Positions 52,031 to 55,485 are shown, numbered from the stretch's first letter. The stretch is 64,000 nucleotides of DNA from an uncultured Arcobacteraceae bacterium (GCA_964022095.1 CAXHZO010000001.1:320001-384000); one strand, 5' to 3'. The notes: generated from the sequence alone by a model not told the origin. Numbers and translations: made by a program.

Positions 52031-52720
52031 CTATTTTAATTTTTTGTTTCTAACTGAACCTGGTCTAAAATATTTTGTTTTGCAAATAGCCAGATCATTT
52101 TTTAAGTCGGATATTTTACTATGGTTTCCCTTTAAGAATTCTTTAACAACACTTAAATTTTGGAAATTTTCAGGCTTAGTAAAAGATGGTGCTTCTAAAA
52201 GGTTATTTTCATAGCTTTCCATTACTAGTGAGTCAGCATTTCCTAGAACTCCATCAACATTTCTAGAAATTGCATCTGCCATTACAGTTGATGCTAACTC
52301 TCCACCTGTTAAGATATACTCACCTATAGAAAATACCTCATTAGCATATTTTTCTATTACTCTTTCATCAATTCCTTCATACCTTCCACTAACAAAAACT
52401 ATGTTTTCTTTTTTTGCTAATCTTTTTGCATCATTTTGCCTAAAAGGTTTAGCAGCAGCCAATGGAAATATAATATATGATTCAGGATTGTTTTTTCTAA
52501 TATCATCTAAACAATCGAAAAGCGGTTGAGGAGTCATAAGCATTCCTGCACCACCACTAATTATTTGTTTATCCACTTTATTGTGTTTGTTAGTTGTATA
52601 GTCTCTAGGATTATAAAACTCATAACTAATGAAGTTTGATTCAATGGCTCTTTTTAAAATAGAGTCTTGAAAATATGGCTCGATAAGATTTGGGAAAAGA
52701 GTAACAAATGTAAAATTCAA
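52031..52720 (-). CDS. trmD: tRNA (guanine37-N1)-methyltransferase
   Basis: [27 protein letters not shown]. Confidence 0.95.
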
Positions 52721-52783
52721 TAATAAACCTATATATTAATTTTTCTAAATATTATCTAATTTTAAATTAAGTTTAGTTTTTCT

Positions 52784-52792
52784 TGATATAAT
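52784..52792 (+). promoter_or_regulatory. Extended -10 promoter for the leader-metE unit
   Basis: TGATATAAT about 30 nt upstream of GTG 52823. Confidence 0.7.
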
Positions 52793-52822
52793 TACACTCT
52801 TAAATTTTAAGAAAGGATTGTT

Positions 52823-53164
52823 GTGAAGTCACCTAAGGGTTTTGGAAAAAAATATTTTACATTTGCTAGTATCTTAGCTCATAATATTCAAAAAAAACTA
52901 GAATCACAAGTTACTATTGCGAAAAAGACTTTACAATATAGATCATCTAAAGATATAGATGAAGTAGAAAATGAAGATCCCCCCGAACTTTTACTTTGTA
53001 CAACATCAATTATAAACTTTAATAAACCTTGTCACTGTGACTGCTTATTTAAAAGAAAAACTAAACTAACAGTACTACTTTTCAAGTTTATTCCTAGATG
53101 TCCATATTATACTACTTGTTTCGCATTTAGACGTACAGGAGTTCATCCCCCACTACAACTTTAA
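52823..53164 (+). CDS. Cys-rich leader protein upstream of metE, candidate ribosome-arrest peptide
   Basis: AAGGA RBS, GTG start; six Cys in the C-terminal half including CHCDC; EDPP and terminal RRTGVHPPLQL. Confidence 0.7.
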   Translation: MKSPKGFGKKYFTFASILAHNIQKKLESQVTIAKKTLQYRSSKDIDEVENEDPPELLLCTTSIINFNKPCHCDCLFKRKTKLTVLLFKFIPRCPYYTTCFAFRRTGVHPPLQL

Positions 53165-53208
53165 TATTCAATCATTCAAAAAAAAGAAAAATATTAAAGG
53201 ATATATTA

Positions 53209-55485
53209 ATGTCAAAATCATACGTAGTAGGTTTTCCAAGAATTGGAGAACAAAGAGAACTTAAAAAAGTACTAGAGAGTTTTTGGGCAAAAGATTGCTC
53301 ATTTGAAGAAGTTAAAGAAGTAGCAAGTGTATTAAAAAAAAGACACTGGAGTTATCAAAAAGAAGCAGGAATTGAGTTTATAAGCTCAAATGATTTTTCA
53401 CTATATGATAATGTTTTAGATACTTGTATTATGTTAAATGCTATTCCTAAAAGATTTGAAAACCTAGAGAATGAAGAGCTTTATTTCTCAATGGCTAGAG
53501 GAAATAAATCTAGCGTTGCAATGGAAATGACAAAGTGGTTTAATACAAATTATCACTATATAGTTCCTGAACTTAGTTTAGAAGATGAGTATAAACTAAA
53601 TGCTACAAAAATCATAGAAGAGTATAAAGAGGCAAAAGAGTTAGGAATTAAAACAAAAATTAATTTAATTGGACCTATAACATTTTTAGGTTTATCAAAA
53701 AGAGTTGATAGAGGTGATACATTTGAATTATTAGGAAAGATTCTTCCAATATATGAAGAGTTATTAAAAGAGATATCTAAACTAGATAATAAAGTAATTG
53801 TTCAATTTGATGAACCAATTTTTGTAAAAAACAATGAAGCAAAAGTTTTAAGTTTAATAAAACCTACATATGACAAGTTAAGTAATATAAGTGATAATTT
53901 AAAATTAGTAGTAACTACTTATTTTGAACACTCAAATGAAGCAACAAGAATATTGACACAAACTTCAATTTGGGCATTAGGACTTGATTTTGTATATGGA
54001 AAAGAAAACTTTGAGAGCTTAGAAATCATTAATGCAAGTGATAAAAAACTTATCGCAGGGGTTGTTGATGGAAGAAATATTTGGAAAAATGATATAAAAT
54101 CAACTTTAAAGCTTTTGATAAAAATTTCAACTAATGTTAATAAAGAAAAACTAATTATTTCTTCATCTTGTTCACTTTTACATACACCTTTTACCTTAAA
54201 ATATGAAGAGAAACTTCAAGCTGAGATAAAAAGTTGGTTAAGTTATGCTTGCGAAAAACTTCAAGAAATTAATATCATTTCAAAAGTTTTCTTTCACAGT
54301 ATAAATGAATTGAATAACTCAGAATTAGATATATTTGAGAAAAATATTAAAGCAAACGAAGAAAGAAAACTTTCAAAAATAATACACGATGAAAAAGTAC
54401 AAGATAGAGTAGATAATTTTGATAAATTTAATAGAGATGGAAAATATGAAGATAGAATTAAACTTCAAAAAAAGCTTTTAAAATATGAAGATTTAGCAAC
54501 TACAACTATTGGTTCTTTCCCTCAAACACCAGATATTAGAAAATCAAGAAGAGATTTTAAAAAAGGTGAAATTTCACAAGAGCTATATGAAAAAGATATG
54601 AAAAAATATATTGATGATTGTATCTCTTTTCAAGAAGATTGTGATATTGAAATTTTAGTTCATGGAGAGCCTGAAAGAAATGATATGGTTGAGTATTTTG
54701 GTGAACAATTAAAAGGGTATGGATTCTCTCAAAATGGATGGGTTCAATCTTATGGAAGTAGATGTGTTAAACCACCATTTATTTATGGAGATATAAGTAG
54801 ACCAAAACCTATGACAGTTGATTGGATTACTTATGCACAAAGTAAAACACAAAGAATTATGAAAGGTATGCTAACAGGACCTGTTACTATTTTAAATTGG
54901 TCTTTCGTGAGAGATGATATTCCTAGAAGTGAAGTATCAAAGCAAATTGCAATTGCACTAAGTGATGAAGTTGATGATTTACAAAAAGCTGGAATTAAAA
55001 TTATTCAAGTTGATGAAGCTGCTTTTAAAGAGGGTTATCCTTTAAGAACTGAAAAAATAAAAGAGTATGAAAATTGGGCAGTAAGAGATTTTAAAATAGC
55101 AGTTAGTAGTGCAAAAGAGCAAACACAAATTCATACACATATGTGTTACAGCGAGTTTAATGACATTATTAAAACAATTGAAGCAATGGATGCTGATGTT
55201 ATTTCAATAGAAACAGCAAGAAGTGGAAATGAGCTTTTAAAAATTTTTAAAGAAGTAGGATATAAGCAAGAAGTAGGACCAGGAGTTTATGATATTCATA
55301 GTCCAAGAGTTCCAAGTGTAGAAGAAATGAAAAAACAAATAAACCTATTACTTGAAGTTTTACCTAAAGATCAATTATGGATAAATCCTGATTGTGGATT
55401 AAAAACAAGAAAATGGGAAGAGACAAAACAGAGTTTAAAAAACATGGTAGAAGCTGTAAAACAAATAAGAAAGGAAAATAGATAG
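53209..55485 (+). CDS. metE: Cobalamin-independent methionine synthase
   Basis: GFPRIG, MTKWFNTNYHY, TTIGSFPQT, HTHMCY, NPDCGLKTR. Confidence 0.98.
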   Translation: MSKSYVVGFPRIGEQRELKKVLESFWAKDCSFEEVKEVASVLKKRHWSYQKEAGIEFISSNDFSLYDNVLDTCIMLNAIPKRFENLENEELYFSMARGNKSSVAMEMTKWFNTNYHYIVPELSLEDEYKLNATKIIEEYKEAKELGIKTKINLIGPITFLGLSKRVDRGDTFELLGKILPIYEELLKEISKLDNKVIVQFDEPIFVKNNEAKVLSLIKPTYDKLSNISDNLKLVVTTYFEHSNEATRILTQTSIWALGLDFVYGKENFESLEIINASDKKLIAGVVDGRNIWKNDIKSTLKLLIKISTNVNKEKLIISSSCSLLHTPFTLKYEEKLQAEIKSWLSYACEKLQEINIISKVFFHSINELNNSELDIFEKNIKANEERKLSKIIHDEKVQDRVDNFDKFNRDGKYEDRIKLQKKLLKYEDLATTTIGSFPQTPDIRKSRRDFKKGEISQELYEKDMKKYIDDCISFQEDCDIEILVHGEPERNDMVEYFGEQLKGYGFSQNGWVQSYGSRCVKPPFIYGDISRPKPMTVDWITYAQSKTQRIMKGMLTGPVTILNWSFVRDDIPRSEVSKQIAIALSDEVDDLQKAGIKIIQVDEAAFKEGYPLRTEKIKEYENWAVRDFKIAVSSAKEQTQIHTHMCYSEFNDIIKTIEAMDADVISIETARSGNELLKIFKEVGYKQEVGPGVYDIHSPRVPSVEEMKKQINLLLEVLPKDQLWINPDCGLKTRKWEETKQSLKNMVEAVKQIRKENR

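Follow-up and report, generated by a model that had tools for sequence, protein, structure and literature searches.

What is the function of a short open reading frame (ORF) without annotation that stands directly ahead of metE, the gene of the cobalamin-independent methionine synthase? The question arises from a stretch of 64,000 nucleotides (nt) from an uncultured Arcobacteraceae bacterium (GCA_964022095.1, CAXHZO010000001.1:320001-384000), referred to here as the window and numbered from its first letter, in which an ORF at 52823..53164 on the plus strand encodes a peptide of 113 amino acids and is followed after an intergenic gap of 44 nt by metE. This ORF, called the leader below, is a real, conserved coding gene and belongs to a large, new family that is linked to two targets, namely metE and the TonB-dependent receptor genes of corrinoid operons. 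The peptides share an invariant Pro-Pro near the C-terminus and a Cys motif at a fixed distance from it, and sites that can pair with the Shine-Dalgarno (SD) sequence of metE are enriched next to the Pro-Pro codons. On the basis of this comparison of sequences, we consider it rather probable that the leader is a cis-acting regulatory leader of the arrest type, i.e. a regulatory upstream open reading frame (uORF), of a previously undescribed family.

The leader and its locus

The locus contains the following features, given with coordinates and strand.

52784..52792, plus strand: extended -10-like box TG-a-TATAAT, candidate promoter of the leader-metE transcript, recognised from the sequence only
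52812..52817, plus strand: SD sequence AAAGGA of the leader, 5 nt ahead of the GTG, read from the sequence
52823..53164, plus strand: leader ORF, 113 amino acids, GTG start, of a family without annotation in Campylobacterota
52823..53002, plus strand: N-terminal module, residues ~1-60, with K-x-P-K-G-F-G-K-K-Y-F...I-L-A, an acidic run and D-P-P, recognised by profile matches to receptor N-termini
53030..53044, plus strand: Cys motif C70-H-C72-D-C74, with C72 invariant and C70 and C74 present in at least 90% of close relatives
53120..53152, plus strand: candidate arrest motif F-A-F-R-R-T-G-V-H-P-P, residues 100-110, with positions that are invariant or almost invariant across 40 sequences
53147..53152, plus strand: terminal Pro-Pro codons CCC CCA, proposed stall site, with P109 and P110 invariant in both alignments
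53153..53164, plus strand: variable tail L-Q-L and stop codon (53162-53164), unconserved in relatives
53159..53168, plus strand: 5' arm of the stem (anti-SD), CTTTAATATT, exact reverse complement of AATATTAAAG
53190..53201, plus strand: 3' arm of the stem, AATATTAAAG (53190-53199), overlapping the metE SD AAAGGA (53196-53201), from sequence and folding
53209..55485, plus strand: metE, cobalamin-independent methionine synthase, the proposed regulated gene (PF01717 7e-150, PF08267 3e-120)

An earlier note on this DNA had described the ORF with its own ribosome-binding site and promoter box, and its account of the peptide proved accurate throughout: there is no internal Met, all six Cys lie in the distal half, including C93 (53099-53101), the Pro codons of an internal E-D-P-P are at 52979-52984, and the C-terminus reads RRTGVHPP-LQL-stop. 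The exact stem of 10 base pairs (bp) between CTTTAATATT and AATATTAAAG, which overlaps the metE SD, was likewise confirmed by the sequence. The extended -10 box was left out by a scan for sigma-70 promoters because it has no -35 match. Upstream of the leader, a Pfam scan of the locus identified trmD on the opposite strand. The leader itself matched no Pfam family at an expectation value (E) up to 1 and no NCBIfam family, and every match in a search of the ESM Atlas was below 0.9 and unrelated. The region 52400-53500 gave no meaningful Rfam match at E up to 10, and no terminator-like site was detected in it. A leader that acts by attenuation at Met codons was also considered and is ruled out, as the ORF has no internal Met codon and there is no terminator-like site between 52400 and 53500.

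A conserved family with two targets

In a six-frame search of 61 related genomes, the leader was matched with E 1e-28 to 1e-68 in 20 loci of many genera, all belonging to the same family. A large protein collection contained 380 clusters at E up to 0.01, of which all the named ones are termed "hypothetical" (the nearest is from Malaciobacter pacificus, with 92% identity), and a profile search of 1.8 billion representatives returned 148 at E up to 0.001, counted as representatives at 50% identity. Full-text searches of the literature yielded no description of the family. Conservation at the protein level reaches E about 1e-30 across genera, and the synonymous positions of the terminal motif vary freely (e.g. 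GCA/GCC/GCG/GCT and AGA/CGT/CGA/AGG), so that it is the peptide, rather than an overlapping RNA, that is under selection.

Two alignments were used for the comparison, A1 with 40 close sequences and A2, a profile built from 70 diverse members. The leader is situated directly upstream of metE and on the same strand in all 20 close loci, 8 of which have no trmD nearby, and directly upstream of metE in 8/8 loci from other families of the order. With A2, 205 of 401 phylum genomes were matched, many of them with two copies. About 100 loci were then scanned with a local hidden Markov model derived from A2, and 110 frames extended into the C-terminal portion of the profile. One receptor frame without Pro-Pro (in L062) was dropped and identical C-terminal strings were collapsed, which resulted in 90 distinct leaders from several Campylobacterota families; L021 and L110-L121, which are metH or regions downstream of receptor genes, do not enter this count. 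The leader stands ahead of metE in 76 cases and ahead of a TonB-dependent receptor gene in 14, while no other gene was found behind it. Both leader types occur together in, for example, the genomes of L032 and L066. In L071, L073 and L089 the downstream metE was identified with tblastn, and in one genus (L064, L101, L102) the gene order is receptor, leader, metE. The leader ORF was present ahead of metE in all metE-type loci that were examined.

The receptor genes point to corrinoid uptake. Seven receptors, four behind leaders and three with a leader-like N-terminus, were scanned against the model of the TonB-dependent B12 receptor, which was the top match in four, among the best two in two more and the fourth match for the receptor of L062. 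BtuF-like, ATP-binding cassette (ABC) ATPase and BtuC-like genes follow the receptor in 7/12 operons examined. Above the NCBIfam cut-offs, CobQ (L113, L114), BluB together with CbiB (L116), and CbiB (L117) were identified; CobD was the best match in L116 and L117 but remained under its cut-off. Two further genes recur in the six corrinoid operons L113-L118, namely a YcaO-like gene in four of them (L115-L118; 486-504 bits to NF040716, below the cut-off) and, in all six, a gene for a protein of ~141 amino acids without an NCBIfam match, located beside the btuFCD-like and cobalamin genes.

Proposed mechanism

The leader would be translated from its own promoter and ribosome-binding site until the two terminal Pro codons (53147-53152) are in the decoding centre. 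There the ribosome would pause or arrest, held by the F-x-F-R-R-T-G-V-H-P-P segment from inside the exit tunnel. The parked ribosome would cover the next ~10-15 nt, including the 5' arm of the stem at 53159-53168, so that the metE SD would stay single-stranded and metE would be translated. Once the ribosome leaves, the anti-SD would pair with the SD and initiation at metE would fall. By analogy with the copper-responsive leader CruR, the Cys motif is the likely ligand site on the nascent chain, and the ligand would relieve the arrest. From the comparative data presented here we infer that the ribosome stalls and that a ligand is sensed, and likewise which way the regulation runs and what the signal is.

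Cobalamin as the candidate signal

In textbook accounts, the regulon of the B12 riboswitch consists of metE and a btuB-type uptake operon. As the leader family heads only metE and corrinoid uptake or salvage operons, cobalamin status emerges as the most likely signal, if still a tentative one, with B12 switching both targets off. The cobalamin riboswitch itself (RF00174) was found in 0/151 genomes of the phylum and gave no match in the window's own genome, whereas a control search with the same family recovered it in 7/14 well-known genomes. The RF00174 covariance model gave no match in the window region either, and the loci of 20 relatives contained no Rfam family at E up to 0.1. For Campylobacter jejuni, the relevant passages of one study report only a thiamine pyrophosphate riboswitch (PMC3847290), and taken together these data suggest that Campylobacterota are largely without metabolite riboswitches.

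The presence of the leader and that of MetH track each other closely by family, with f11 excepted. Leader and MetH were counted in 22/23 and 22/23 (f1), 34/34 and 32/34 (f15), 19/19 and 19/19 (f23), 8/8 and 7/8 (f17), 15/20 and 19/20 (f6), and 0/7 and 0/7 (f13), respectively; the window's own genome carries metH. The leader may therefore stand in for the B12 riboswitch that was not found in the phylum. In its most specific form, the proposal is that a nascent-peptide cobalamin sensor has taken over the metE and btuB-type regulon in a phylum without the riboswitch: the Cys/His motif would perceive B12 on leaving the tunnel, the arrest at Pro-Pro would be released, the anti-SD would close the ribosome-binding site, and both targets would be turned off. 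We regard this as possible, with the odds somewhat against it.

Several findings weigh against B12. All receptor scores lie below the curated cut-off of the B12 receptor model (44-272 bits vs 599.7). Family f11, a Campylobacter-like clade, has MetH in 0/158 genomes and metE in 124/158, and shows leader-like matches in 75/158, the leader being kept in a truncated form. In the four f11 genomes that were inspected, the ORF before metE lies in an open frame of 88-96 codons and keeps H-C-N-C, the fixed spacing and an x-P-P end, the N-terminus being different and the N-terminal module lost; the B12-binding domain PF02310 was absent from all four. One reading, made post hoc, is that f11 lost MetH together with the sensing module and kept a constitutive C-terminal module. 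The clade nevertheless cautions against B12 as a universal signal. Furthermore, G154 and G088, which belong to another genus and have both MetH and MetE, carry no leader before metE and in its place show a palindrome-like ATACA-n3-TGTAT close to the promoter. In the window's own genome, no family member at E up to 0.001 stands at the head of the BtuB-like operon.

Two observations were made on regions of this kind. In three metE upstream regions from leader-less genomes (L127, L128, L130), a common palindrome-like ATACA-n3-TGTAT occurs ~45-50 nt before metE and adjoins a -10-like box; judged by its sequence, it looks like a transcription factor operator of these lineages. In the window's own genome, outside the window (G000, C2:313147-312962, minus strand), an ORF of 61 amino acids directly precedes the BtuB-like receptor gene (C2:312952-311114; 268 bits to the B12 receptor model, under the cut-off), and a BtuF-like gene comes next. 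The N-terminus of the 61-residue peptide, K-K-Y-F-T-L-F-G-I-L-A, is family-like, there is no Cys motif, no Pro-Pro and no match to A2, and the ORF may be a decayed or divergent relative of the leader.

An arrest-type leader could also respond to a signal other than B12, either homocysteine, methionine or S-adenosylmethionine (SAM) as a measure of methionine-synthase demand, or a metal (Zn, Co) held by the Cys motif. In both MetE and MetH, a zinc-thiolate site serves to bind homocysteine, and methionine-synthase demand would suit both targets. The persistence of the truncated leader before metE in f11, which lacks MetH and, in the four genomes examined, the B12-binding domain, fits such a signal as well, as does the Cys motif of CruR, which senses a metal (PMC9426467). 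However, metE is the sole methionine gene with a leader, no other target occurs among the 90 leaders, and the other target, a corrinoid operon, has BluB, CbiB and CobQ; metE together with such an operon forms the classic regulon of B12 and not one of methionine or zinc. There are no regulatory Met codons in the window ORF, and the f11 forms have lost the N-terminal module, so that they may no longer sense anything. A signal other than B12 is thus regarded as a somewhat doubtful explanation. The proposal of the earlier note that Zn, thiol/redox or sulfur amino-acid status is sensed received no support; the corrinoid second target and the lack of a cobalamin riboswitch in the genomes searched point to B12-related control rather than to Zn or thiols.

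A peptide leader on just the two classic targets of the B12 riboswitch would be a protein-level replacement of a very widespread riboswitch, and control by arrest peptides, which covers secretion and copper, would come to include a central metabolic enzyme and perhaps a vitamin. The family also provides a name for a "hypothetical protein" in more than 100 of the 401 sampled genomes of the phylum, and its natural variants, with truncated forms, two motif classes and two target types, dissect the modules of the leader.

Conservation pattern of the peptide

In the 40 close sequences, the invariant residues are G6, F7, Y11, F12 and P53 in the N-terminal half and C72, I90, R92, C93, Y96, F100, A101, F102, R103, R104, G106, H108, P109 and P110 in the distal part, whereas only G6, Y11, P109 and P110 are invariant in the 70 diverse ones. 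The C-terminal Pro-Pro, at which the earlier note had placed the pause, is thus shared by all members of both alignments. The residues ahead of it fall into several motifs. In metE-type leaders these are F-[AS]-F-R-R-[TS]-G-[VIT]-H-P-P, R-[YK]-T-K-T-G-[LI]-A-P-P, K-T-K-T-G-T-S-P-P and others, and in receptor-type leaders N-[TNS]-[SA]-I-S-P-P, R-S-T-L-S-P-P, S-G-I-A-P-P and N-T-G-L-A-P-P.

The family keeps four Cys, arranged either as CxCxC plus a further C or as two CxC pairs. The distance from CxC to the last Pro of the Pro-Pro is 38 or 40 residues in the HPP class and 35 or 37 in the APP/SPP class. No other values occur among the 89 leaders scored, the remaining one of the 90 being a truncated form without the Cys motif. 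The spacer is therefore fixed in length while its sequence diverges widely. A length of 35-40 residues corresponds to about one ribosomal exit tunnel.

Beyond the Pro-Pro, by comparison, the tail is unconserved, measures 0 to 65 amino acids and in some cases overlaps the next gene or continues into it. In metE-type loci, the end of the stop codon lies 3 to 198 nt past the Pro-Pro; in seven loci, the leader frame overruns the downstream start codon. In L060 (G176:C8) the leader has no stop codon at all and its frame continues into the receptor gene, resulting in an open frame of 731 codons in which the receptor's own signal peptide starts 51 nt past the Pro-Pro. At the other end, natural truncations leave only the last 45-50 residues (L023, L028, L029, L108, L109, L123-L126), and the N-terminal module is missing in 10/76 metE-type leaders. 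In a structure prediction with AlphaFold2, based on the alignment of 40 sequences, the mean predicted local distance difference test (pLDDT) score was 60 and the predicted template modelling score 0.27. The N-terminal module was modelled as a long helix (pLDDT 77-85), and residues 89-113, the most conserved ones, remained below 50. By this prediction, the leader peptide is not a folded domain.

These data also bear on the possibility that the ORF encodes a stable, trans-acting small Cys-rich protein, maybe an exported metal- or corrinoid-binding factor that is co-expressed with MetE or with partners of B12 uptake and uses the terminal motif for binding. All 113 residues are conserved, including the helix predicted at the N-terminus, four Cys in the arrangements mentioned are typical of a metal site, and export is conceivable given the homology of the N-terminus to the signal peptide and TonB-box region of receptors. 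Such a protein would, however, have its most conserved segment in a region predicted to be disordered, and a tail that is free in length, in frame with the next gene (L060) or running over its start, is hardly compatible with a functional C-terminus. It would likewise have to do without its N-terminal module in 10/76 metE-type relatives, to keep a spacer length despite divergent sequence, to have an anti-SD that follows its Pro-Pro codons, and to serve both the gene of a cytoplasmic enzyme and an outer-membrane receptor operon from one family. We therefore consider a trans-acting protein unlikely.

Position of the anti-SD

The leader of the arrest type makes a prediction about the RNA as well, since the anti-SD should lie where a ribosome parked at the Pro-Pro would cover it. 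In the window, the minimum-free-energy fold of 53141-53220 (-7.5 kcal/mol, z -1.96; 7/200 shuffles fold equally well) contains the stem, which as a duplex reaches -8.2 kcal/mol (z -2.5, p 0.017, 300 dinucleotide shuffles). When the first 25 nt were removed, mimicking the parked ribosome, the metE SD was unpaired save for a 5-bp hairpin over the start codon. Taken alone, the window stem exceeds chance modestly or marginally, and its weight comes from the comparative data.

In each locus, the scan for the best duplex with a 23-nt window comprising the SD and the start codon began 300 nt upstream of the Pro-Pro and ended immediately ahead of the SD, ~300 positions in all. The best SD partner overall is located at -8..+24 relative to the Pro-Pro in 29/76 metE loci, while the chance share of windows is 4.8%. 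In 11 further metE loci the best anti-SD site overlaps the Pro codons themselves (-17..+11). The start of the anti-SD arm varies from -5 to +9 relative to the Pro-Pro as opposed to -199 to -1 relative to the stop codon, so the site tracks the Pro-Pro rather than the stop codon. In L008, for example, the arm lies at +3..+16 from the Pro-Pro and the stop ends at +48; in L025 the arm is at +4..+17 and the stop at +60; in L002 the arm is at +5..+18 and the stop, at +6, comes before the arm. The sequences of the arms vary between genera, each matching its own SD context. Among the 20 close loci, the SD duplex has z below -1 in 13 and p < 0.05 in 11 (300 dinucleotide shuffles). The distance from the Pro-Pro to the downstream start is 45-55 nt in 12/14 receptor loci and 40-80 nt in 42/76 metE loci. 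The earlier note had proposed to judge its reading by the conservation of the Pro-Pro motif and the stem, and by this comparison the reading mostly stood: the Pro-Pro is invariant, and an anti-SD with varied sequences adjoins it at 29/76 loci where about 5% would be expected, the best partner lying elsewhere in 47/76.

Plain translational coupling, in which any ribosome finishing the leader would open the SD stem without programmed arrest or ligand and the Pro-Pro would cause a brief EF-P-dependent pause at most, suits the window, where the stem is weak and spans the stop codon, the gap of 44 nt is short and H-P-P is no proven arrest motif according to passages of PMC10987492, but it leaves the 11-residue motif conserved up to the invariant Pro-Pro and the fixed Cys-to-Pro-Pro spacing unexplained and disagrees with an anti-SD that follows the Pro-Pro and not the stop (L008 with the stop at +48, L025 at +60, L002 before the arm), which makes it quite improbable.

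The arrest-type leader itself has to be weighed against a number of opposing points. The conservation of all 113 amino acids, N-terminus included, is also compatible with a functional protein. The window stem is AU-rich and weak, a reservation of the earlier note that was upheld, and in the unbiased scan it ranks second (-8.2) behind a site in the ORF body (-8.6). The best SD partner lies outside -8..+24 in 47/76 metE loci, which include the 11 with an overlap of the Pro codons and the window as a close second. Since related genomes are not independent, a binomial value for the 29/76 loci overstates the case and is merely indicative. A Pro-Pro-proximal best partner was obtained in 3/14 receptor loci, with the best one elsewhere in 11/14, and SD sequestration is therefore not established for the receptor class. 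Finally, V-H-P-P is not among the motifs shown to arrest, in line with the reservation of the earlier note that HPP is only RAPP-like, and most proteins with RAPP-like motifs do not stall, as stated in passages of the respective study (PMC10987492).

Some longer spacers between leader and metE were observed. L010 and L018, which belong to one genus, have spacers of 213 and 76 nt with a common element of ~40 nt (TTTTGTTATCTACATTTT..TAGAGAATT.AATAT), and the spacer of 194 nt in L007 contains GC-rich hairpins.

Comparison with known systems

The closest parallel, and an experimental precedent, is CruR (DUF2946) of Bordetella pertussis, reported to be a uORF with an export signal, a CXXC motif, a 45-residue spacer and RAPP, in which copper relieves the arrest, whereupon Rho-dependent termination occurs ahead of the gene of a TonB-dependent transporter (PMC9426467). 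Both are uORFs of ~110-145 amino acids at the head of an operon, with an N-terminal region resembling an export signal and poor structure by prediction, and in both a conserved Cys motif is separated by a spacer whose length is conserved from a C-terminal x-x-P-P that lies a few residues ahead of the stop. The Cys-to-Pro-Pro spacing is kept within 1-2 residues, although its absolute length differs. TonB-dependent receptor genes also stand behind some relatives of the window ORF (14/90), but together with corrinoid genes, and the copy in the window heads metE. The differences are nevertheless clear. At E up to 1, none of the 70 diverse sequences matched DUF2946; the Cys motif is C-H-C-[DN]-C or CxC instead of an invariant CXXC; the terminal motif is [ST]-G-[VILT]-[HAS]-P-P instead of RAPP; the spacer has 35-40 residues instead of 45 intervening ones; the targets are metE and corrinoid uptake instead of copper homeostasis; and a short gap with SD pairing takes the place of a long GC-rich spacer with Rho-dependent termination. 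The leader thus has a CruR-like architecture without being a member of DUF2946. The comparison with CruR and RAPP drawn by the earlier note accordingly holds for the layout and fails for membership, with no DUF2946 in the 70 members and with CxCxC and [VIL][HAS]PP as motifs.

RAPP-like (RQH) arrest motifs follow the pattern (R/Q/H)-(A/G/D)-(P/G/S)-(P/G), and the ribosome stalls with the codon of the third residue in the P-site, according to passages of PMC10987492. Similarly, uORFs with RAPP or RGPP and a signal peptide are described upstream of TonB-dependent receptor genes in passages of PMC12992588. With these peptides, and with SecM and MifM, the leader shares a C-terminal Pro motif near the stop of the uORF, an unconserved tail and an N-terminal segment resembling a localisation signal, as far as the passages on them go (PMC10987492, PMC12992588, PMC10951233). 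In systems of the SecM/MifM type, as described in such passages, the stalled ribosome opens a downstream SD, as proposed here for leader and metE. The first position of the motif, however, is V, I, L or T here instead of R, Q or H, while [HAS]-P-P at positions 2-4 fits partly, and the downstream gene is metE or a TonB-dependent receptor gene instead of a Sec or YidC component. The RAPP-like studies targeted motifs of the RAPP/RGPP type, and their passages on these do not mention the leader family (PMC10987492, PMC12992588).

The cobalamin riboswitch (RF00174) of other phyla has the same targets, metE and btuB or its uptake operon, and is also located directly before the SD, with SD sequestration being plausible for both; the leader differs in being a translated, peptide-coding ORF instead of a structured RNA aptamer. 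A nascent-peptide sensor within methionine biosynthesis has a precedent in plants, where the MTO1 peptide of Arabidopsis CGS1 arrests in response to SAM. The latter is eukaryotic, lies inside the main ORF, is unrelated in sequence and leads to mRNA decay. In C. jejuni, MetL is an ORF of 20 amino acids before metBA, which, from its description in passages of PMC3847290, is unrelated to the leader family. The passages considered of a preprint on ribosome profiling in C. jejuni do not mention metE (10.1101/2022.11.09.515450).

Origin of the leader

Homology to the N-terminus of BtuB-like receptors extends over the N-terminal 50-105 residues of the leader (profile matches with E 1e-8 to 1e-15). 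In the receptors, this part goes from the signal peptide through an acidic run and P-P to a TonB-box-like stretch, and the hydrophobic stretch at the N-terminus of the leader is short. Receptors with a leader-like N-terminus matched the B12 receptor model with 3e-61 and 8e-81. In view of this homology, the 5' end of a gene for a BtuB-like receptor is the probable source of the leader. As read from coordinates and not from a systematic tally, BtuB-like receptor genes with a leader-like N-terminus are found 0.6-5.2 kilobases from metH and on the same strand in nine genomes (G118, G085, G394, G122, G209, G092, G052, G115, G086).

The internal Pro-Pro of the leader (E-D-P-P, 52979-52984) lies within this N-terminal region. 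P53 is invariant and P54 is present in at least 90% of the 40 sequences, and the pair aligns with the P-P ahead of the TonB-box region in related receptors; judged by its sequence, it may be a second site of pausing or may have been inherited.

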